Positions 1 through 43,259 of a DNA stretch of 60,584 nucleotides are shown here, one piece after another. Under the pieces are notes generated by a model. It was not told the origin of the DNA and made no database searches. It saw only the letters and a program-made list of their open reading frames with translations. The DNA is taken from NCBI GenBank assembly GCA_964402965.1, contig CAYODY010000005.1, positions 1 to 60,584 of the forward strand, written 5' to 3'. Position numbers and translations under genes: made by a program. Numbering within the stretch: position 1 is the first letter of the stretch; each line of letters begins with the position of its first letter. The DNA comes from an uncultured Candidatus Saccharibacteria bacterium (GTDB lineage: Bacteria; Patescibacteriota; Doudnabacteria; UBA920).

Positions 1-55
1 GAGCACTCGGTTTGGGACCGAGAGGTTCCGGGTTCGAGTCCCGGGTTCCCGACCA
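1..55 (+). tRNA. tRNA-Pro(UGG), 3' part only (5' end is off-window)
   Basis: Anticodon arm ctcgg/tttggga/ccgag gives anticodon TGG with G37. T arm is ccggg-ttcgagt-cccgg. Acceptor 3' strand, discriminator A and an encoded CCA end at 55. Confidence 0.85.
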
Positions 56-104
56 GATATTTCAATAGACTAAAATTTAAGCATAGCGGGATCTACCCAA
101 CTGT

Positions 105-179
105 GCGGGTATCGTATAATGGTTATTATCTCAGTTTTCCAAACTGATGACGGGGGTTCGATTCCCCCTACCCGCTCCA
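105..179 (+). tRNA. tRNA-Gly(UCC), CCA encoded
   Basis: Hand-folded cloverleaf. Acceptor is gcgggta/tacccgc, anticodon arm tcagt-tttccaa-actga (anticodon TCC), T arm ggggg-ttcgatt-ccccc. The D stem is weak. Confidence 0.85.
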
Positions 180-181
180 AA

Positions 182-213
182 GAAAAAAGTCTGACTTTAG
201 TCGGGCTTTTTTC
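182..213 (+). terminator. Hairpin plus T-run after tRNA-Gly
   Basis: gaaaaaagt-ctgac-ttta-gtcgg-gcttttttc is a contiguous stem of about 14 bp followed by a T-rich run. Confidence 0.6.
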
Positions 214-215
214 TT

Positions 216-385
216 TTGGTTAGTGGACATAGAGGAATCGAAAAAGAACGTGCCCGAGCGAAGCGAGGGATGAAACATGCTGGGAGCATGTTTCAAGTGA
301 CGGGGGTCGCCGCAGCGTAACTCGACGACTCGCCATAGGCGGGAGGAGAGTAGCGAGAGGTGACCAATTCCCCCTAACCGCTCCA
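216..385 (+). pseudogene. tRNA-Gly-derived tRNA-like segment: a duplicated 3' half with a 57-nt insert in the T-loop
   Basis: 298-309 plus 367-385 (tgacgggggtcg / attccccctaaccgctcca) match tRNA-Gly 148-179 apart from one missing T and one C>A change. 310-366 is inserted between the g and a of the T-loop. 217-223 can pair with 374-380. The 5' part is not a recognisable cloverleaf. Confidence 0.4.
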
Positions 386-417
386 AAAAAACACCCATCG
401 GAAGATGGGTGTTTTTG
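386..417. terminator. Bidirectional intrinsic terminator
   Basis: An A-run, then stem acacccatc / gatgggtgt with a GGAA loop, then a T-run. It serves the + strand unit and the convergent HU gene. Confidence 0.7.
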
Positions 418-442
418 TATTTAATCGTGCATATAGTTTGAA

Positions 443-736
443 CTAAGAATTACGAAGCTTTACTGCATCTTTAAATGCTTCACCAGCTTTAAACTTTGGT
501 GTGTTTAATTCTGGGATTTGAATTTTTTGTTGTGGGTTTCTAGGATTAACGCCAATGCGAGGTGCGCGATGAGAAACACTAAACTGGCCAAAGCCACTAA
601 TGTTTACTTTATCGCCAGTACGCAAAGTCTCATACACTAAATTAATAAATGTATTTAACATGCGTTCCGCTTCTGTGTAGGTTACAGACATACGGGCGGC
701 CAACTGTTCAATTAAATCTGATTTATTTAAGTTCAT
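443..736 (-). CDS. hup: HU/IHF-family nucleoid DNA-binding protein
   Basis: 97 aa. LIEQLA...ISGFGQFSV..RAPRIGVNPRNPQQKIQIP..PKFKAG is the typical HU beta-arm. Confidence 0.9.
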   Translation of the reverse strand: MNLNKSDLIEQLAARMSVTYTEAERMLNTFINLVYETLRTGDKVNISGFGQFSVSHRAPRIGVNPRNPQQKIQIPELNTPKFKAGEAFKDAVKLRNS

Positions 737-881
737 AAGTGCCTTGATTATATCACATTCTGGTAGCTATTTCAAAAATATACCACCAATAGTATTAATT
801 ATTGCCGCGATGCCTATTTCTATGAATTTCCAAATTTTTCTTAGCATTCCCATGTATTCATTATAGCACTAATCCATGGTG

Positions 882-2831
882 CTATTCCGCTCTCCCAGTT
901 AAAACAAACTTATACAAAGCCACAGCTCCAGCTGTTACTGTAGCAATACCCATGGCAACTATTTTAGCTATAGAGTCTTTAGCAGTATTCGTAGATTTTT
1001 TGGCTTCTTGAGATTCTGCATCTGTTTTTTGATCAGTCTTAGTTGATGAATTCACTTTTGCCGCATTTGTTACAGGCTGAACAGAGGTCTTCTGCACTGG
1101 CTTAGACTTGGCTGTTGAAGTTTTAGTAGCAGTTTTAGATGGAGTTTTTGAAATTGTTTTAGCTACAGATTTCGCAGTTGTTAAAACTTGGGTTGTCTTC
1201 TCTGCTTTTTTGATAGATTCCTTCTTAATTGTTTCTGGAAGAAGTAATATGTTCGGTTCGCCATCTGTAACTTTTGTTGTCCATAGAAACCCATCTTCAA
1301 AGCTTGAAAAGCTTGCTCCTTTTACTGAAGCAGAATATGTAACTTTACTTAATACTTTTGTTCCATCTGTTAATAGCACTGTCTGGCCAGAATTTCGTAA
1401 CTGCGCAGGCAAATTGGGTTTGAGTAAAACTAAATATTCATCTGGTTCAAGTAGTTGGTTTGGTAGCAGCTTCTTTCTATCGCCTACCCAAACATAGATA
1501 TTCGCAAGATTTGCATCTTCTTCTCCGGAGTTATAAATTTCTAAAAACTCCTGTTGGTTTAAATCAGGTTGAGGCAAAATTTCTGAAATTATCAGTCCGC
1601 TGTTATCGTAAGTTGGTAGTGGTTCTTGGTCTGGCTGTGGATCGGATTCTTCTTCTATATTTGGAGGTACATTTTCTTCGCCTAGAGAAGGCTCAGTCCA
1701 ATTCCACTCTTGATCAAAATAGCTGTAAGTTTTCCCTTCTGATGCATCTGATTCATAAACAACAGTTGAAAGAGGTTCACCTGCTTCCGTAAACAATGTA
1801 ACTACATCACCACCTGAATTATTCATAGCAAATTTTCCAGCAGGAATTGTTAAAACCTCGTATGTTTGAGCAGGAATTTCTAAGCTTGGTAAAATATATG
1901 CATCATTTGTCTGGGAATCTATTTGAGAGATATCATCTAAAATATATTTTTCTATATTCACTGGTTCTGTGCCTGCATTAAATACTTCCAACTGCTCTGC
2001 GCCTGAATCCGTTCCAACAGGGTTCGGTAGAATTTCGGTAATGACCAAGTTCGGTTTAATAGTTACCGGAACAGGTGTTGGCAATGGCGGGTCTACTTGT
2101 GGCGTTGGTTCTGGGTCTGGCGTTGGTTCTGGGTCTGGGTCTGGTGTTGGATCTACATCTGGGTCTGGTTCAGAAACAGGTGGTAGAAACTCAACTTGAG
2201 AATTCCTTGGCGCGCTGGTAGAAATTTGAAACTGTTTAATAGTGCCGAGCAAATCTAAACGAACCATGGATTCATTTGCTACAGGATTTTGAGTAACTAC
2301 AGTTTCAAAACCGTTAGCACTATTCCCCCACGCAATGCTATCTATTATTTCTCCTGTATCACTTTCGCCTTGTCCTTGCCGTCGTAGAGCAACTCCGTTA
2401 TTATCTGCTAACGTAACGGATGTTGTTGTATCTGGGACTGTAGAGATTGCATTAAAACCGCTATTTGCCCATAAGTAAAAATGGTGCGCTGGAACTATGG
2501 TTACGCTTGTCCAAGATTTAACTAAAGTATCTGTACTTGCAGTTGCAGTACGCTTTACCAATCTGTGGCCATTGAGGTCAAAAGGTAGATCTGTTGGATT
2601 GTAGAACTCCACAAAATCCTCCTGAGTGTGACCGGTTCCACCAGTAATTTGCACTGCGGAAATTTCCAGTGTGGCTTGTGAAGATATTAAGGACATTTGC
2701 GAAGGTGTTTCCAGCAAATTCTGAATAGACGAAGATTGAGCATGAACAGCCACTGGACTAAACATTACAAGCAAAGCTTGTGCTACGAACAAGTACGCAA
2801 ATTTAGCGTACCAAGTATATGTATTTTGCAT
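882..2831 (-). CDS. Secreted lamin-tail-domain (LTD) repeat protein with a C-terminal TM anchor
   Basis: Start moved to MQNTYTW..., which gives the signal peptide ...SPVAVHAQS. Several EFVE(F/I)YN LTD-like segments are present. There is a PDPxPxP linker, a K/T/S-rich stalk and a terminal hydrophobic helix. Confidence 0.6.
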   Translation of the reverse strand: MQNTYTWYAKFAYLFVAQALLVMFSPVAVHAQSSSIQNLLETPSQMSLISSQATLEISAVQITGGTGHTQEDFVEFYNPTDLPFDLNGHRLVKRTATASTDTLVKSWTSVTIVPAHHFYLWANSGFNAISTVPDTTTSVTLADNNGVALRRQGQGESDTGEIIDSIAWGNSANGFETVVTQNPVANESMVRLDLLGTIKQFQISTSAPRNSQVEFLPPVSEPDPDVDPTPDPDPEPTPDPEPTPQVDPPLPTPVPVTIKPNLVITEILPNPVGTDSGAEQLEVFNAGTEPVNIEKYILDDISQIDSQTNDAYILPSLEIPAQTYEVLTIPAGKFAMNNSGGDVVTLFTEAGEPLSTVVYESDASEGKTYSYFDQEWNWTEPSLGEENVPPNIEEESDPQPDQEPLPTYDNSGLIISEILPQPDLNQQEFLEIYNSGEEDANLANIYVWVGDRKKLLPNQLLEPDEYLVLLKPNLPAQLRNSGQTVLLTDGTKVLSKVTYSASVKGASFSSFEDGFLWTTKVTDGEPNILLLPETIKKESIKKAEKTTQVLTTAKSVAKTISKTPSKTATKTSTAKSKPVQKTSVQPVTNAAKVNSSTKTDQKTDAESQEAKKSTNTAKDSIAKIVAMGIATVTAGAVALYKFVLTGRAE

Positions 2832-3045
2832 AACATTGGATATTAATAATATCCTTATTATGCAGAAGTACAGTTCAAGACTACATAAATAAAAACCCAA
2901 ATAAAAATAAAAATTTTATCTGGGCGAATTATTTTGCACGAACTTCACGTACTAATAAACAAAACGGGCTAATAGACAAGCAAATTTTTTGCTATTCTTA
3001 CAACTTGTAATTTACAACTTAGGGTAACTACCGCTGACAACAATT

Positions 3046-4245
3046 CTATATATTAAGTTGGTTAACCATTCGAGTTTGTAACACACCACCAATTTCGGTA
3101 TCCCAATCTGGCCTAATAGACTGCACTGCTTCGCCAGGCCAATATCCCCACGAATCTAGAACGCTCATGCTTGGGAAAGCATAGCGCTTGGCATCTTTCA
3201 TTACATACAAAGTTCCTAAATCTAAAATTAGCGTTCCATCTGGATGTACAATTTGGTCCGAACTAATTGGCTCAAGCGTTGTCATGAAAGAAGTATCTCC
3301 TGGATACACGCTTTTGTAAGAATAGTTTAACCCTTTAAAGACTGCTTCAGACGTAAAACCAGCTCGCTGACCGTTGGTGATTAAATATACTGTGCCTTTA
3401 TCGTTAATTAAAGAGCCATTTCTTGGTGGAATGAATGCAGTCGTTAAAGTTGTTGAACCGGTTGGAGTATATGTAATTACAGGCAATGCCATATCTGCGG
3501 AGTTTGCTTTCACAACTCCTGACCAAGTATTAAATTTGTAAGAAGTGAACGCTCCAGCGGAAGTGTATGGACTACGAGACGCCGTAGAACCACTCCCTAC
3601 TATGCGGTAAATTGTTCCGTCTGGTCCCGCAATGTTTGTCCCCTCTCCGTGAGCTTGAGCGTTGTCTACAGGAGGAAGTATTGGCGGTGTGTCTCCTGCA
3701 TTTTTACAAGTTACCTGTGTAGATGGATTAGCGGTATTTTCTGGACTTGAAACATAGACTATAGCGCCCAAGACATACAAATGGAAAAGATAATCTTTAA
3801 GCCCAGCCGCAGAAGGATCTGTTTGAACTACATTGACCAATTCTGCCATGCTGCTTGAAGAGATTGAGCAAATTTGAGGAGATGGACCATTTTTAAAACC
3901 TTGGAAATAGATTTTACAGCTCGATCCTTCCAAACCATCAATACGAGCAATAACTGTTTCTTTTGAGGTTGTGGAATATACTTCGCTAGATGCTTTTGCA
4001 CAAGACATCAAAGCTTCCGACATACATTTAGCAGAAGAAATATCTGAAGATGTTGGTTTGTTTGATGGACTAATTGGAATATTTTCTTGAGTAAGCTTCC
4101 CACAATCTAAGTATCCAGCTGGAGCTGCAGCACTAACTTCCCTAACAAAAGGGGTAATGGTAGCAATAGGGGTAATTGAAATAGCAAATGGTAAAGACAG
4201 TGCAATTATTGAAAACAGTAAAAATATGTGTGCGATCTTTTTCAT
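3046..4245 (-). CDS. Secreted protein, function unknown
   Basis: 399-aa ORF with an N-terminal signal or TM segment (MKKIAHIFLLFSIIALSLPFA). No motif recognised. Confidence 0.55.
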   Translation of the reverse strand: MKKIAHIFLLFSIIALSLPFAISITPIATITPFVREVSAAAPAGYLDCGKLTQENIPISPSNKPTSSDISSAKCMSEALMSCAKASSEVYSTTSKETVIARIDGLEGSSCKIYFQGFKNGPSPQICSISSSSMAELVNVVQTDPSAAGLKDYLFHLYVLGAIVYVSSPENTANPSTQVTCKNAGDTPPILPPVDNAQAHGEGTNIAGPDGTIYRIVGSGSTASRSPYTSAGAFTSYKFNTWSGVVKANSADMALPVITYTPTGSTTLTTAFIPPRNGSLINDKGTVYLITNGQRAGFTSEAVFKGLNYSYKSVYPGDTSFMTTLEPISSDQIVHPDGTLILDLGTLYVMKDAKRYAFPSMSVLDSWGYWPGEAVQSIRPDWDTEIGGVLQTRMVNQLNI

Positions 4246-23496: not shown

Positions 23497-23551
23497 GCTC
23501 AAGATCGTCAGTTCAAAAATCCATTTTCCAAAGAAATAAAAAAGCATTCCC

Positions 23552-23611
23552 TAACGAGACTATTGGAGCTCAGCATCACGCGAAGCGTGAGCGTAGCGAC
23601 CTAGTCGAGGT
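23552..23611 (-). repeat. Hairpin-nested module, copy 1 (reverse orientation, different apical hairpin)
   Basis: The reverse complement reads acctcgactaggtcgctacg-ctcacgcttcgcgtgatg-ctgagctccaatagtctcgtta. It is enclosed by outer stem 23539-23551 / 23612-23624. Confidence 0.85.
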
Positions 23612-23635
23612 GGGAATGCTTTTTATATTTCTTAT

Positions 23636-27023: not shown

Positions 27024-27132
27024 AAAATTTCACCTCACTTTAAAATGTGGCCTCAAGGACCTTAATCTCAGTAATTATACGTCATTTCCCCTCGGAGGTC
27101 AAATTGACGATCAACCCTCAAAACTAATTACC

Positions 27133-27191
27133 ACCTCGACTAGGTCGCTACGATTTGCTTTCAGCAAATCTGGGCTCCAATAGTCTCGTTA
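27133..27191 (+). repeat. Hairpin-nested module, copy 2
   Basis: acctcgactaggtcgctacg-atttgctttcagcaaat-ctgggctccaatagtctcgtta. It is enclosed by outer stem 27115-27132 / 27192-27208. Confidence 0.85.
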
Positions 27192-27212
27192 GGTAATTAG
27201 TTTTTGGGTTAT

Positions 27213-27542
27213 TTATTCAATTAGAAAATCCAGCTGTTCTTTAGGAATCCCTAATGATAAACCATAGTTAACAGCAGGGATCCATGAATCCTTATTATCA
27301 TATTCAAATTTGAAAATCTTATTCTTATAGACTGCTATAATACTATTTCCATTCCAAAAATGCATATACCAACTAACACCATTGATTTCTTGAGAGAGCT
27401 TATTAATATCTTCTTCTGATATTTCGACAGTATATAAATGCCAACCCAAATTTTCAGTTTTTCTAGAACTGATTATTTTGAAATCAGTTAATATTTTTGG
27501 GTTTACTAAACTCTCTAAGATAATAGTGCCAGTATATTCCAT
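27213..27542 (-). CDS. Hypothetical protein
   Basis: Start moved to MEYTGT. TGtTATAAT at 27549-27557 lies 6 nt upstream. The longer ORF would run into the 27554-27573 hairpin arm. Confidence 0.5.
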   Translation of the reverse strand: MEYTGTIILESLVNPKILTDFKIISSRKTENLGWHLYTVEISEEDINKLSQEINGVSWYMHFWNGNSIIAVYKNKIFKFEYDNKDSWIPAVNYGLSLGIPKEQLDFLIE

Positions 27543-32904: not shown

Positions 32905-32930
32905 ATAGAAATAAAATTAAAGGTGTTGTC

Positions 32931-32989
32931 ACCTCGATCAGGTCGCTACTATTTGCTTTCAGCAAATCTGGGCTCCAATGATCTCGTTA
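32931..32989 (+). repeat. Hairpin-nested module, copy 3
   Basis: acctcgatcaggtcgctact-atttgctttcagcaaat-ctgggctccaatgatctcgtta. It is enclosed by outer stem 32919-32930 / 32990-33001 between convergent genes. Confidence 0.85.
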
Positions 32990-33030
32990 GACAACACCTT
33001 TTTATTTTACAAATTTTACTCCAAAAGAAT

Positions 33031-35757: not shown

Positions 35758-36480
35758 ATGAATACAAACACATCCTATTTTGATTCCCTGGAATCAAAAA
35801 TATATTTCCTTCGTGGTCGGAGGGTAATGTTAGATAGCGACCTAGCTTTTTTGTATGGCGTGCCAACAAAAAGATTAAATGAGCAAGTCAGAAGAAACAC
35901 ACAGCGATTCCCCGAAGATTTTATGTTTCAACTCACACAAGAGGAGTTCGACCATATACGGTCGCAATTTGTTTCCGCATATGTGGATAACAATTCTTTA
36001 AGGTCACAAATTGTGACCTTAAACAGTGGACAACTATCTTCAAGGTCGCAAATTGCGACCTTGAACGATCAAGATGGCTTAAATGAGCCAAACTTGAAGT
36101 CACAATCTGTGACCTCAAGTGGGGATAACCTACCTTCAAGGTCACAAATTGTGACCTTGAACAAAAGCATGAGGTCGCAAATTGAGACCACATCAAAACG
36201 TGGACAAAATATTAAGTACCTTCCCTTCGCATTTACCGAGCAAGGGGTGGCAATGCTATCTTCTGTTTTAAAAAGCGAGCAAGCAATTCTAGTAAATATT
36301 CATATTATGCGGACATTCACAAAAACGCGTGGGATGTTGGCACAAAACCAACAACTCCGCGAACTCATAGAGAATCTGGAAATTAAATACGACGCCAATT
36401 TTAAAACCCTATTAGACGTCATTGAACTAATATTAACCCCGCAAGACATTGTAGAGAAAGGAAAAAATGAACGAATATAA
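35758..36480 (+). CDS. ORF6N/KilA-N-like DNA-binding protein with an internal RSQ(I/F)(V/A)T repeat expansion
   Basis: IYFLRGRRVMLDSDLAFLYGV.TKRLNEQV.RN..RFP.DFMFQL and YLPFAFTEQGVAMLSSVLKS. Confidence 0.75.
   Translation: MNTNTSYFDSLESKIYFLRGRRVMLDSDLAFLYGVPTKRLNEQVRRNTQRFPEDFMFQLTQEEFDHIRSQFVSAYVDNNSLRSQIVTLNSGQLSSRSQIATLNDQDGLNEPNLKSQSVTSSGDNLPSRSQIVTLNKSMRSQIETTSKRGQNIKYLPFAFTEQGVAMLSSVLKSEQAILVNIHIMRTFTKTRGMLAQNQQLRELIENLEIKYDANFKTLLDVIELILTPQDIVEKGKNERI
36000..36159. repeat. Perfect 21-23 nt palindromes inside the CDS
   Basis: 36000-36020 aaggtcacaaattgtgacctt; 36041-36063 caaggtcgcaaattgcgaccttg; 36137-36159 caaggtcacaaattgtgaccttg. Degenerate copies lie near 35959, 36099 and 36171. 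Confidence 0.9.
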
Positions 36481-37600
36481 TTTAACACCAGAATTAGACG
36501 CTGATCTAGAAGCACTCTATCTATATATACTCTCGCTTCTGCCTGTCAGAGAATTAGCAGTATTTGAAAAGTGGCGATTAAACGCGGGTTCGTTTGAAGC
36601 TATTTACTTTGCAGACGAGCAAGAACTCGGAAAATTTGGTTTTCCTTTTCAACTCCTTGGAAAATTAGAAGAAGTAAAGCGAGAACACTCATTGGAAAAA
36701 ATTGTCACAGATTTAGCGCATACAGGCGTAAAAGTTTTACCATACTACGATGCACAATACCCAATTCTTTTAAAAGAAATTTACGATGCTCCCCCAGTGT
36801 TGTTTTACCGAGGTGAGCTCTTTGAGCAAAACACACAGCAAAGCAACGAGCCATGCATTGCTATAGTAGGTTCACGCGCCATGACTCCATACGGCACCAT
36901 GGCAATACCACGCATCACATCCCCCCTTCTGGATGCAGGAATTACAATTGTTTCCGGTCTCGCATACGGTGTAGACAGTTCTGCGCACAAAGAAAGCGTC
37001 GCGCGCGGCCAACGAACAATTGCAGTCTTAGGCTCGGGCGTGGATGATGAATCTATTTACCCACGCGCGCACTTTAAACTTGCACAAGAAATTTTAGACA
37101 ACAAGGGTCTACTCCTCTCAGAGCAACCACCATTCACCCCTGGTTTACCATATAATTTTGTCGCACGAAATAGAATCATTGCAGGCCTTTCTCTTGGTGT
37201 TGTAATAGTAGAGTGCAAACTTAAAAGTGGAGCCTTAATTACTGCCGATTATGCAGGAGACTTTAACCGGGCGCTTTACGCAGTCCCTGGGCCTATCTAT
37301 TCAAAACTAAGCGATGGGCCTCACAAACTTATTGGCGATGGTGCTATGTTAATTACATCTGGTCAAGATATTTTAGATGACCTAGCTATATCTCAACCGC
37401 AACTAACTAAACAACTTGAAACGAAATTAACAAACACCGAACAGACTGTGTTAGAATGTATTCAAGATACACCTCGCGCTATTAATGAAATTGCTGGCAT
37501 TTCAAATTTAGATATAAGCATTGTCGCGCAAACAATTACTTTGTTAGAACTAAAAAATTTAGTCAAAGAATTGGGTGTAAAAGGTTATATAAAAATATGA
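36467..37600 (+). CDS. dprA: DNA-processing protein DprA (Smf)
   Basis: VGSRAMTPYG, SGLAYGVDSSAH and NRIIAGLS, with a C-terminal winged-helix-like tail. Confidence 0.88.
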   Translation: MNEYNLTPELDADLEALYLYILSLLPVRELAVFEKWRLNAGSFEAIYFADEQELGKFGFPFQLLGKLEEVKREHSLEKIVTDLAHTGVKVLPYYDAQYPILLKEIYDAPPVLFYRGELFEQNTQQSNEPCIAIVGSRAMTPYGTMAIPRITSPLLDAGITIVSGLAYGVDSSAHKESVARGQRTIAVLGSGVDDESIYPRAHFKLAQEILDNKGLLLSEQPPFTPGLPYNFVARNRIIAGLSLGVVIVECKLKSGALITADYAGDFNRALYAVPGPIYSKLSDGPHKLIGDGAMLITSGQDILDDLAISQPQLTKQLETKLTNTEQTVLECIQDTPRAINEIAGISNLDISIVAQTITLLELKNLVKELGVKGYIKI

Positions 37601-41543: not shown

Positions 41544-43259
41544 CTAAAATTGTTGAGTATTTACTGGTTCCTCACTGCTAAGGGAACCATGCTCAACTTT
41601 GGGTCTGTAGCTCAGTTGGTAGAGCAGTGGCCTTTTAAGCCATTTGTCGCGGGTTCGAATCCCGCCGGACCCACCAAATGAGTCTTGCTCGAATATAGGA
41701 TTGCCTTTAGTTTTATTACGGCATAAGTAATCCAACGGTTCTTGCAAGACAGCACGGACAATTTGTCCATCACGCATATACAATTCTTTGAATAACGTTC
41801 GAGCCAAGAGAGCCTTCATTTGAGGCTCTTTTGCGTTTTGGTAGGCATACGCGCAACTAACCGTTAGTGATAGTGCAATCTCAACAGTACGGACGACTCC
41901 CGCAATTTTACTTTCAACTTTACCGAGTTCATCAGTTAACTTTGTATCTTCCATTCCTAATTCAGCCATAACCGTATGGTACAAATCCATATCTCCAGAG
42001 GTGTTATTTTCTTTATCAACTAACTGAAGAACTAAGTTTTTCTTCTGCCGTTTAATGTTCGCTACTTTCCCTAGTATATCCTTACGGGCTTTTTCATAGA
42101 TAACATGTTCATCAGAAAACAATCCCCTGACTTTTGCTTGAAGCTTTTCAGTAGTAGATACAGGCAGGTTGATAGTTTGAAGAAGTTTCTCAAACTGATT
42201 TTCATACTCAGACTCATGATGGTACTTCTGACTACAAGGTACTTTCCTTTTCTTGATAGCCTTTAGACAACGAAGATACCGATAGATGTTCTTTTTACGA
42301 GTTACCTGCTCATCACTAGTCATTTTACTACTGCACTCATCGCAGTATGAGATGCCTTTAAGGATAGAAAACAAACGCCACTTCCGACTTGAACTACTAG
42401 AGCGTGATGAGCATACCGCTTGGGCTTTATCGAATAACGCACGATCTAAAAATAGTTCGTGGTTACCATTTTCATTTACAACTCCGTCCCATATAATATG
42501 CCCAATATAGAATTTGTCTTGGAGAATGCGAGCCAAATAGCTAGCTTGCAAAACACTGCGAGTCTGACCTTTAAATAAACGAAGTGGAAACCCTTCATCA
42601 ATAAGCTGTTCAGCTAAATCACGAGTTGACCAGTTGCCAGTAGCATACAGTTCATATGCCCTAGTGACCCATTTAGCCTCTGTCCAGTCTACTTCTATCC
42701 ACGCCTTAACTTTACCAGTAGACGCTTTCTCCTGAACATTTTTATATCCATAAGGGGCTGTCCTTGGCCAACCCCCAGCTTTCGCTTTCTGTATTAGATT
42801 GTTCTTAACTCGGCGACCATGTTGAGCAGAATAGAATTCTGCTAGTGAAGATAGGATTCCTTCCAACATTTGACCCTCAGGGCTGTCATCAATACCTTCT
42901 GTGGCGGAAATTAATTTAACATTGTGTTTACGCAATGCGACTTTAATAAGTGAGAGGTCATCACGATTGCGAGCTAGGCGGCTTAGGTCGTAAACAGTGA
43001 TTGCCTGAACAGACTTATCTTTTTCACAACGATTTAGCATATCCAGCAGTGCTGCACGATCCATTGTGCGAGCACTCAGTCCTGCATCTGTGTAAATGTC
43101 TGTCTCAAGGTTAAATGTGTAGCCATTTTGCTCTGCGTATTCTGTACATTTAGCTTGCTGTGTTGGGAGAGCAATGCCTTTTTCGGCTTGCTGGTCGGTT
43201 GATACCCGTAGATAAATGAGGGTAATACCTTTTGATTGATTTATTGATTGTTCGTTCAT
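41544..43259 (-). CDS. Large serine recombinase; the last ~44 codons are read-through across the tRNA-Lys antisense
   Basis: Resolvase N-domain ITLIYLRVSTDQQ...YDLSRLARN, a recombinase domain, and zinc ribbon CDEC...YLRC. The C-terminal FGGSGGIRTRDKWLKRPLLYQLSYRP is the reverse complement of the tRNA. Confidence 0.85.
   Translation of the reverse strand: MNEQSINQSKGITLIYLRVSTDQQAEKGIALPTQQAKCTEYAEQNGYTFNLETDIYTDAGLSARTMDRAALLDMLNRCEKDKSVQAITVYDLSRLARNRDDLSLIKVALRKHNVKLISATEGIDDSPEGQMLEGILSSLAEFYSAQHGRRVKNNLIQKAKAGGWPRTAPYGYKNVQEKASTGKVKAWIEVDWTEAKWVTRAYELYATGNWSTRDLAEQLIDEGFPLRLFKGQTRSVLQASYLARILQDKFYIGHIIWDGVVNENGNHELFLDRALFDKAQAVCSSRSSSSSRKWRLFSILKGISYCDECSSKMTSDEQVTRKKNIYRYLRCLKAIKKRKVPCSQKYHHESEYENQFEKLLQTINLPVSTTEKLQAKVRGLFSDEHVIYEKARKDILGKVANIKRQKKNLVLQLVDKENNTSGDMDLYHTVMAELGMEDTKLTDELGKVESKIAGVVRTVEIALSLTVSCAYAYQNAKEPQMKALLARTLFKELYMRDGQIVRAVLQEPLDYLCRNKTKGNPIFEQDSFGGSGGIRTRDKWLKRPLLYQLSYRPKVEHGSLSSEEPVNTQQF
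41601..41676 (+). tRNA. tRNA-Lys(UUU), CCA encoded
   Basis: Canonical cloverleaf. Acceptor gggtctg/cggaccc, D arm gctc-agttggta-gagc, anticodon arm gtggc-cttttaa-gccat, T arm gcggg-ttcgaat-cccgc. Confidence 0.93.

Follow-up and report, generated by a model that had tools for sequence, protein, structure and literature searches.

A strain-variable cassette and a candidate structured RNA behind the tRNA-Gly gene of a Doudnabacteria genome

Just downstream of tRNA-Gly(UCC), near the left end of a Doudnabacteria contig (CAYODY010000005.1; "the window" is the whole stretch of 60,584 nucleotides (nt) analyzed here), parts of the 3' half of the tRNA appear a second time, in two pieces, within a GC-rich unit of 170 nt. 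What is this second tRNA end, and why is it interrupted where the T-loop should be? An earlier note on this DNA, which saw a tRNA-Gly 3' half duplicated and then split by an insert, offered three answers: an att-type duplication scar of a lost integrative element, a decayed tRNA gene, or an expressed tRNA-like RNA. Our preferred explanation, held with about as much doubt as confidence, is that positions 180-385 are an accessory cassette for a structured RNA whose ends mimic those of a tRNA, and that recombination at the tRNA-end repeat adds and removes this cassette.

The insertion and its tRNA-end repeat

Direct reading confirms the two duplicated strings, their single mismatch and the gap between them. 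One string, TGACGGGGGT, is exact at 148-157 and 298-307, its only two positions in the window. The other, ATTCCCCCTACCCGCTCCA (161-179), is repeated at 367-385 with 18 of 19 positions identical, the sole mismatch being C171 against A377, and is separated from the preceding piece (298-309) by 57 nt (310-366). Judged from base composition, the chance expectation is ~2e-8 for a 19-mer within 250 nt and ~0.002 for a 10-mer in common with a 32-nt query. The variable position of the repeat is C in the left copy and in the empty site, and A in the right copy; A377 faces U220 of the unit's leader, with the pairing preserved in both sequence and fold.

Comparison of strain contigs from other samples that encode an identical HU protein revealed that the cassette is an insertion polymorphism. 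L001, L002, L003, L005 and L008 carry it with the same sequence as the window (L-numbers denote the contig loci of strains and relatives compared with the window). In L004 and L010 it is exactly missing, and the tRNA-Gly, ending in ...CTACCCGCTCC, is followed directly by the native terminator T2. The insertion is 206 nt long, framed as 180-385 or in any frame shifted within the repeat, and is bounded by the 19-nt repeat. A second species (HU cluster P0056) provides another, independent filled/empty pair: L125 is empty, and L124 and L126-L129 hold a 197-nt unit that is seated exactly after CCA and ends in an exact 19/19 copy of the tRNA end.

Within the cassette lies a terminator of its own, T1, whose stem has two G.U pairs and is therefore effective on the plus strand only; T1 was not scored in a simple terminator scan. 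As proposed in the earlier note, the unit spans 216-385, ends in CCA and lies between this hairpin with its U-run and T2. Its GC content is 0.57, against a window background of 0.36-0.42. No open reading frame (ORF) lies within the 206-nt cassette, and both BLAST and the covariance model R1, described below, find a single copy in the 60-kb window.

With a direct repeat of the tRNA 3' end on both sides and precise empty sites, the cassette has the form of an att-flanked element. To this extent the idea of an att-type duplication, here a 19-nt repeat running from T-loop to CCA, was right. The scar of a lost element it is not, because the ~200-nt unit is itself a conserved and recurring entity.

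Table 1. Features of the cassette and its flanks, in window coordinates
Feature	Position	Strand	Basis
tRNA-Pro(UGG), 3' part, cut by the window edge	1-52	+	Rfam tRNA, 34.1 bits, 5'-truncated
tRNA-Gly(UCC), CCA encoded; anchor of the cassette	105-179	+	ARAGORN; Rfam tRNA, 63.4 bits
19-nt direct repeat, left copy (tRNA positions A58-A76), ATTCCCCCTACCCGCTCCA	161-179	+	Sequence comparison
Strain-variable cassette, 206 nt	180-385	+	Alignment of strain contigs; BLAST
T1, hairpin and U-run that belong to the cassette and immediately follow the tRNA CCA	183-214	+	Self-complementary match 179-214; fold
Leader; UGGUUAG 217-223 pairs with 374-380	216-245	+	Folds, sequence
Hairpin A, CCC/GGG with 11-nt loop GAGCGAAGCGA	253-269	+	Folds; aligned by R1 to hairpin A of the sister subfamily
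Hairpin B, GAAACAUGC-UGGGA-GCAUGUUUC	272-294	+	Compensatory changes
Hairpin C (split T-arm of the earlier note)	302-373	+	Folds
Right copy of the 19-nt repeat, ATTCCCCCTAACCGCTCCA; tail of the unit	367-385	+	Sequence comparison
T2, native terminator, shared with the convergent HU gene	387-416	+	Terminator scan; empty-site alignment
HU-family DNA-binding protein gene, conserved right flank of the hot spot	443-736	-	ORF; PF00216 on identical products

Fold, covariation and relatives of the unit

The fold of 214-386 has a z-score of -3.8. The acceptor-like pairing suspected in the earlier note, UGGUUAG with CUAACCG (374-380), is present in the minimum-free-energy fold. It is continued by the leader segment GAGGAAUCGAA (232-242), the antisense of the tRNA T-loop and the 3' strand of the T-stem, of which 232-238 pair with the tail at 367-373. 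Taken as a whole, the leader copies the tRNA 3' end in degenerate antisense form (UGG...GAGGAAUCGAA), the tail copies A58-A76 in the sense direction, and their pairing closes three hairpins, A, B and C. In hairpin B, 9 of the 12 pairs covary in the sister subfamily introduced below. Hairpin C takes up both pieces of the supposed T-arm: GGG 302-304 pairs with CCC 370-372, and GGUCGCC 305-311 with GGUGACC 359-365. This base helix is identical in L028, L114 and L118, with a differing interior; the variable interior includes CUCGCC/GGCGGG. The 57-nt "T-loop insert" is thus the variable inner part of a hairpin whose base is conserved in the tRNA-Pro-associated homologue described below.

Archaeal tRNA genes can be disrupted by introns or split by integrating elements (PMC3293823). 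As in those genes, a tRNA-derived sequence is interrupted here in the T-loop region, and the natural population is heterogeneous at the tRNA locus. Unlike them, this locus belongs to a bacterium, has an intact tRNA upstream and lacks a bulge-helix-bulge at the junctions. We rejected an archaeal-type T-loop intron on the last point: 309/310 and 366/367 show no such motif and sit in a continuous 7-base-pair helix with a single 4-nt bulge.

RNA-type covariation is seen in the sister subfamily, six sequences of which form alignment A2. The RNAalifold consensus has 49 pairs, 21 of them with compensatory changes, and was compared with controls in which the partners were slid and with 500 shuffles. 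Paired cells make up 96.6% of the total versus 34-48% in the slid controls, double-change pairs number 21 versus 1-4, and the observed values are reached by 0/500 shuffles. A symmetric internal loop contains tandem G.A pairs, and the pairs flanking it swap GUGAGC/GCGAAC for GCGAAC/GUGAGC and back. On the tRNA strand there are 8 G.U cells versus 2 A.C cells, which points to an RNA read in the direction of the tRNA. Compensatory pairs already distinguish the close strains L124 and L127. The covariance model of this subfamily, R1, gives a full-length match of 25.1 bits to window positions 219-385, with E = 9e-6 for the window and 7e-5 for 453 kb, and aligns the leader, hairpin A, hairpin B and the tail. 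Together, the covariation, the G.U pairs on the tRNA strand and the raised GC content suggest, on sequence grounds, that the expressed tRNA-like RNA is the best of the three answers offered earlier.

The tRNA 3' end, T1 and the leader together make up one long imperfect palindrome, which would also be expected of a non-functional by-product: hairpin-rich DNA that arose when part of the tRNA was duplicated and a palindrome grew, or the template was switched, at the tRNA terminator, and that has remained in a recombination hot spot. Such an origin would fit the T-loop-altered tRNA-Gly 3' halves found at the same site in L044, L047, L058 and L062, and the lack of any promoter found. It is made improbable by an architecture conserved across lineages whose HU proteins are only 77-86% identical, by the many compensatory changes, seen even between the close strains just named, and by the small, streamlined genomes in which the units reside.

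Relatives of the locus were collected via the HU protein, which yielded 80 genome loci titled Candidatus Doudnabacteria or Patescibacteria. Aligning these with the window, a check named in the earlier note, brought out both the filled and empty alleles and a family of units. Related units of 115-200 nt follow tRNA-Gly and a terminator in L021, L022, L029, L030, L037, L048, L061, L124 and L126-L129. L029 has two in tandem, separated by tRNA-end copies, with near-identical cores and differing terminators and leaders; behind the tRNA-Gly of L028 only a 5' fragment is kept. Units are present in about 10 lineages versus ~85 sampled, and the HU clusters P0002, P0003, P0004, P0012, P0014 and P0091 yielded no additional ones. 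Each unit opens with a degenerate reverse complement of the tRNA 3' end (UGGA...GGAAUCGAAC). The leader motif lies 45-53 nt past the tRNA end in all members (52 nt in the window), and in L061 the leader tracks the T-loop variant of the host tRNA (GGGGAATCGGACC versus GGTCCGATTCCCC). Each unit closes with a sense copy of its host's own tRNA end through CCA; the copied block begins at A58 in 8/8 units, and the flanking repeat ranges from 12 to 55 nt of tRNA sequence.

We define this family here as the Doudnabacteria tRNA-end-tagged RNAs: a terminator, an antisense-T-arm leader, three hairpins and a sense tRNA 3' end with CCA, located directly 3' of a tRNA. The window unit is a member by its full-length R1 match, the position of its leader and its tail copy. 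The family is previously undescribed; no description of such units was found in the literature on tRNA-like RNAs of the candidate phyla radiation (CPR) or on minihelix-like RNAs downstream of tRNA genes.

Some members are accompanied by further oddities. Behind the first unit of L022 (~2830-3190, minus strand) and of L021 (~2800-3060, minus strand) lies an additional GC-rich stretch of ~330 nt with the same leader, TGGAATGGTAAATAGAGGAATCGG, and a common GACCCAGGGATRAC..., without a tRNA-end tail; R1 matches these stretches weakly (15 bits) and Rfam does not match them. In L061 (2996-3170) the unit is surrounded by a direct repeat of 55 nt or more, which comprises CCCCTTACCCGCTCCA and the whole terminator, the second copy running into an N assembly gap. 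Duplication can extend over the terminator as well, or else the assembly collapsed at the repeat.

One homologue has been retargeted to another tRNA. It shares 85% identity with window positions 240-318 (79 nt), contains GGCGGGGGTCGCCGCAGCG...GGTGACC and lies behind tRNA-Pro in L028 and in four contigs of its strains. The tail reproduces the tRNA-Pro 3' end at 20/20 positions, and the leader is altered where needed to keep the tail paired (A-U to C-G, G-C to C-G). Hairpin B differs between this homologue and the window by two compensatory pair changes.

The same homologue bears on the supposed duplication. The 12-nt piece at 298-309 belongs to the core that the units conserve and does not come from the adjacent tRNA, because it is present behind tRNA-Pro as well; in L048, too, this "T-stem 5' piece" does not track the host tRNA. 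Since empty-site alleles and homologues could be compared, only the 19-nt piece counts as a duplication: of the "tRNA-Gly 3' half" described earlier, the block A58-A76 stands and the 12-nt piece does not, and the true duplication of tRNA-Gly is limited to that block. A decayed duplicate tRNA-Gly carrying a hairpin-nested module in its T-loop, the composite envisaged in the earlier note, is in our view barely credible. It would draw on the exact 10-nt match (variable loop and 5' strand of the T-stem) beside the 19-nt match, and on a cloverleaf-like outline. Against it, ARAGORN finds no tRNA in 216-385, the Rfam tRNA model gives no match there even at E<=10, and a BLAST comparison of 181-430 with the window returns 3'-end matches only, with no likeness to the tRNA-Gly 5' half. 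The T-stem piece behaves as just described, and the proposed kinship of the insert with the three hairpin-nested modules of the window, of which it was to be a fourth, diverged copy, is at chance level (p = 0.12-0.94 against the three copies, 500 dinucleotide shuffles); R1 does not match the modules either.

Ends matched to tRNA-Gly at one locus and to tRNA-Pro at another raise the question of how a cassette copies the end of its neighbor. One answer would be a retro-type, RNA-mediated element, with the leader resembling a primer-binding site (UGG opposite CCA) and the tail a tRNA-like 3' tag copied from, or primed by, the tRNA. The ends of such an element, its leader being antisense to the tRNA 3' end, would track the neighboring tRNA automatically, as both did at tRNA-Pro. 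Insertion is exactly at the mature CCA end in three independent cases, and the block copied from A58 onward is close to the 18-nt block that retroelements copy from their tRNA primers. We still judge this very unlikely: no reverse transcriptase was seen among 10 scanned of the ~65 ORFs in the window, the acceptor part of the leader is degenerate and would be a poor priming site, units whose cores are identical have different T1 and leader sequences, there is no poly-A or other mark of retroposition, and no copy was seen away from tRNA genes. Also quite unlikely is a protein-less mobile RNA cassette that seats at the CCA end and rebuilds both of its ends from the landing tRNA by tRNA-primed or tRNA-templated copying; if true, this would be a self-retargeting, tRNA-guided element in CPR bacteria.

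Possible origin and role of the cassette

Under the explanation that we prefer, an accessory structured-RNA cassette, the insertion would supply a replacement terminator for the tRNA, T1, and a gene of ~170 nt for a structured RNA on the tRNA strand. Leader and tail would form an acceptor/T-stem-like helix with a free ...CCA, closing the three-hairpin junction. Because no conserved promoter was found, the RNA would presumably be produced by read-through from the tRNA operon. Since the ends of the unit imitate the acceptor end of a tRNA, trimming by tRNA-processing enzymes may follow, with RNase P acting on the 5' side and 3' trimming to CCA. The mature RNA might then stand in for the tRNA acceptor end, as mimic or decoy. 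The cassette could be deleted by recombination of one 19-nt repeat with the other, and homologous recombination through the universally conserved tRNA and HU flanks could spread it between strains; the window encodes DprA (36467-37600).

Several observations weigh against this explanation. A promoter search found no conserved sigma-70-like promoter between T1 and the unit, and T1 would be expected to stop much of the transcription arriving from the tRNA. Pairing of the leader is stronger with the 3' end of the real tRNA (-21.2 kcal/mol) than with its own tail (-13.5), and because of this better fit a different role for the leader, as RNA or as DNA, is possible. Homologous recombination alone gives no account of a tail and leader that match tRNA-Pro in L028. 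The patchy distribution among lineages also fits active mobility, and the subfamily of the window is represented by two to three independent sequences.

The order of the convergent HU gene, tRNA-Gly and tRNA-Pro is kept across the 80 HU-found loci, but tRNA-Gly and HU are anywhere between 46 and 1481 nt apart. The interval between them, a hot spot of variation, also carries other tRNA-fragment scars and other cargo. The cassette could also be read as a miniature, protein-less integrative element, composed of attP and cargo, that a recombinase supplied in trans inserts at tRNA 3' ends, the RNA-like fold being either the cargo or a fold of the recombination site. The 19-nt repeat would be the attL/attR identity block, the cassette terminator would keep the tRNA functional, and the circle or attP junction left by excision would read ...GGTGACCA-ATTCCCCCTAMCCGCTCCA-AAGAAAAAAGTC..., or GGTGACCA-ATTCCCCCTAMCCGCTCCA-AAGAAAAAAGTCTGAC. 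A direct repeat from T-loop to CCA, precise empty sites, a terminator supplied by the element, the L029 tandem with its near-identical cores and different terminators and leaders, the scars and cargo of the hot spot, and the patchy distribution all argue for this possibility, and agree with the tRNA-seeded island model developed for tycheposons (bioRxiv 10.1101/2020.12.28.424599). We nonetheless consider it unlikely. No integrase was found in or beside any of ~85 loci, nor among the ORFs in the variable interval of the 80 related loci, nor in the set of called genes. In the window a single recombinase was seen, a large serine recombinase at tRNA-Lys, and enzymes of this type leave no such repeats. 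A 200-bp circle would be a poor recombination substrate, the repeat varies in length from 12 to 55 nt, and the tandem G.A pairs and G.U-biased compensatory changes speak for a selected RNA. Finally, close homologues occur at two tRNAs, whereas integrase specificity normally shifts slowly.

Comparison with known systems places the unit between categories. In 2002 Williams reportedly distinguished sublocation classes among the integrative elements that target tRNA genes. Like such elements and islands, the cassette is inserted 3' of an intact tRNA and lies between the tRNA 3' end and an incomplete repeat of that end; it shares with them the precise empty sites, the successive insertions parted by partial tRNA copies and the heterogeneity that peaks beside the tRNA. 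It differs in a unit of ~200 bp that has no integrase and no ORF and is itself a conserved structured RNA, in the antisense copy of the tRNA end, and in homologues at two tRNAs with both ends re-matched.

Known tRNA-like RNA modules include the tRNA-like domain of transfer-messenger RNA (tmRNA), the 3' tRNA-like structures of viruses, mascRNA and the tRNA-like domain of bacterial Y RNA. As in these, distant 5' and 3' segments of the unit form an acceptor-like helix with a 3' CCA around a large non-tRNA body, and maturation by tRNA enzymes is plausible. Unlike them, the unit has its T-loop and elbow replaced by a long hairpin, has a tail that copies the neighboring tRNA, is without an Rfam or ARAGORN match and varies between strains. 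The unit combines the architecture of tRNA-anchored elements with the end mimicry of tRNA-like modules.

Bacterial MITEs (miniature inverted-repeat transposable elements) and other small non-autonomous repeats, such as Correia, RUP, BOX and REP, resemble the unit in being small and protein-less, with inverted-repeat ends that fold in RNA, presence or absence between strains and an association with terminators. The unit differs in being present once per locus and always at a tRNA 3' end, with no dispersed copies in the 60 kb, and in a flanking repeat that consists of 12-55 nt of tRNA sequence and is not a short, fixed target duplication. A MITE was rejected on these grounds.

Other identities were tested and discarded. 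Rfam 15, which includes tmRNA, Y RNA, T-box and self-cleaving ribozymes, returned only tRNA at the gathering score and terminator-like noise at E<=1 to 10. A hepatitis delta virus-like or hammerhead ribozyme (GGGCAAC ... hairpin ... GCGAAU; UGAGC...GCGAA) was rejected because the helices are nested and not pseudoknotted, the hammerhead core CUGA is absent and Rfam gives no match. A T-box (UGGA opposite UCCA) was rejected because there is no regulated downstream gene and the tRNA-Pro unit has no UGG. A scan of metagenome contigs with TTTCAAGNGNCGGGGGTCGCC gave two chance matches in a coding region, and scans of viral contigs with the hairpin C 17-mer, the leader/P1 motif and the hairpin A/B motif gave either 14 chance matches to high-GC phages or none, so that the unit left no sign in phage contigs. 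A phage collection gave no BLAST match to window positions 1-3000.

If the reading as an accessory structured-RNA cassette holds, CPR bacteria would possess a structured-RNA family, undescribed so far, whose members imitate the acceptor end of the preceding tRNA. This family differs from strain to strain within a species, and the short list of tRNA mimics would gain a new class. A 170-nt RNA ending in CCA would offer a handle on tRNA processing, or on tRNA-targeting conflict, in organisms not yet grown independently. It would also follow that tRNA-anchored variable regions can be built from units of ~200 bp without a recombinase gene.

The locus, its variants and other features of the window

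The tRNA-Pro(UGG) gene, truncated here, is complete in strain contigs L001, L003 and L005. Besides HU, the genes near tRNA-Gly encode a lamin-tail-domain protein, NusB and GroEL/ES.

A second type of tRNA-Gly 3' copy lies 7-10 nt past the intact tRNA with no intervening terminator. It occurs in L044 (1411-1468), in L062 (3086-3140), in L047 (minus strand; 58 nt and a further ~115 nt after tRNA-Gly 3029-3102) and in L058 (minus strand; after tRNA-Gly 1868-1941). These copies have a conserved 5' flank, GGCGGGCAGG, followed by identity from C36 of the anticodon loop to CCA, and most are altered in the T-loop alone, which reads TTTTACA in L044 and TTTTAACT in L062. In L047 and L058 a hairpin of 38 or 35 nt replaces the T-loop, and one L047 copy has the T-loop intact. 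Disruption of the T-loop in extra tRNA 3' halves is thus recurrent.

In the closest sister species (L019, ~2880-2960, and L107, after tRNA-Gly on the minus strand), an antisense copy of the 3' end of a different tRNA, TGGTGGAGATGACGGGAGTCGAACCCGCTAC, occupies the interval behind tRNA-Gly. It is another tRNA-fragment scar in the hot spot.

Further ORFs near the two tRNA genes are found at L021 3337-3792, L024 3064-3815, L050 2978-3263, L057, L070 2779-3367 and, in the gap between tRNA-Pro and tRNA-Gly, L124-L128. Small GIY-YIG proteins (79-99 amino acids) adjoin tRNA genes in L021, L050, L070 and L124-L128, and in L021 13 nt of the tRNA-Pro 3' end are repeated after the GIY-YIG gene, which gives it the cassette form of the RNA units. 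The ORFs of L024 and L057, between or beside the two tRNA genes, are candidate LAGLIDADG-like ORFs (identified by eye, 222-224 amino acids).

The large serine recombinase of the window (41544-43259, minus strand; Resolvase, Recombinase and Zn_ribbon_recom domains) abuts tRNA-Lys(UUU) (41601-41676, plus strand), which the longest reading of its ORF overlaps. An integrated element may end here; the window has no second copy of a 3' or 5' part of tRNA-Lys.

The hairpin-nested module, ~62 nt long, has three copies, at 23538-23624 (minus strand), 27120-27205 (plus) and 32913-33000 (plus). Each consists of CACCTCGAYYAGGTCGCTAC, a hairpin and then TGRGCTCCAATRRTCTCGTTAG, and is nested in the loop of a terminator-like hairpin; the fold of 27110-27215 has a z-score of -7.2, and Rfam gives no match. 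Lastly, three to four copies of the palindromic AAGGTCACAAATTGTGACCTT lie at 35956-36164, spread over 200 nt in the region upstream of the DprA gene, and look like repeated operator sites.

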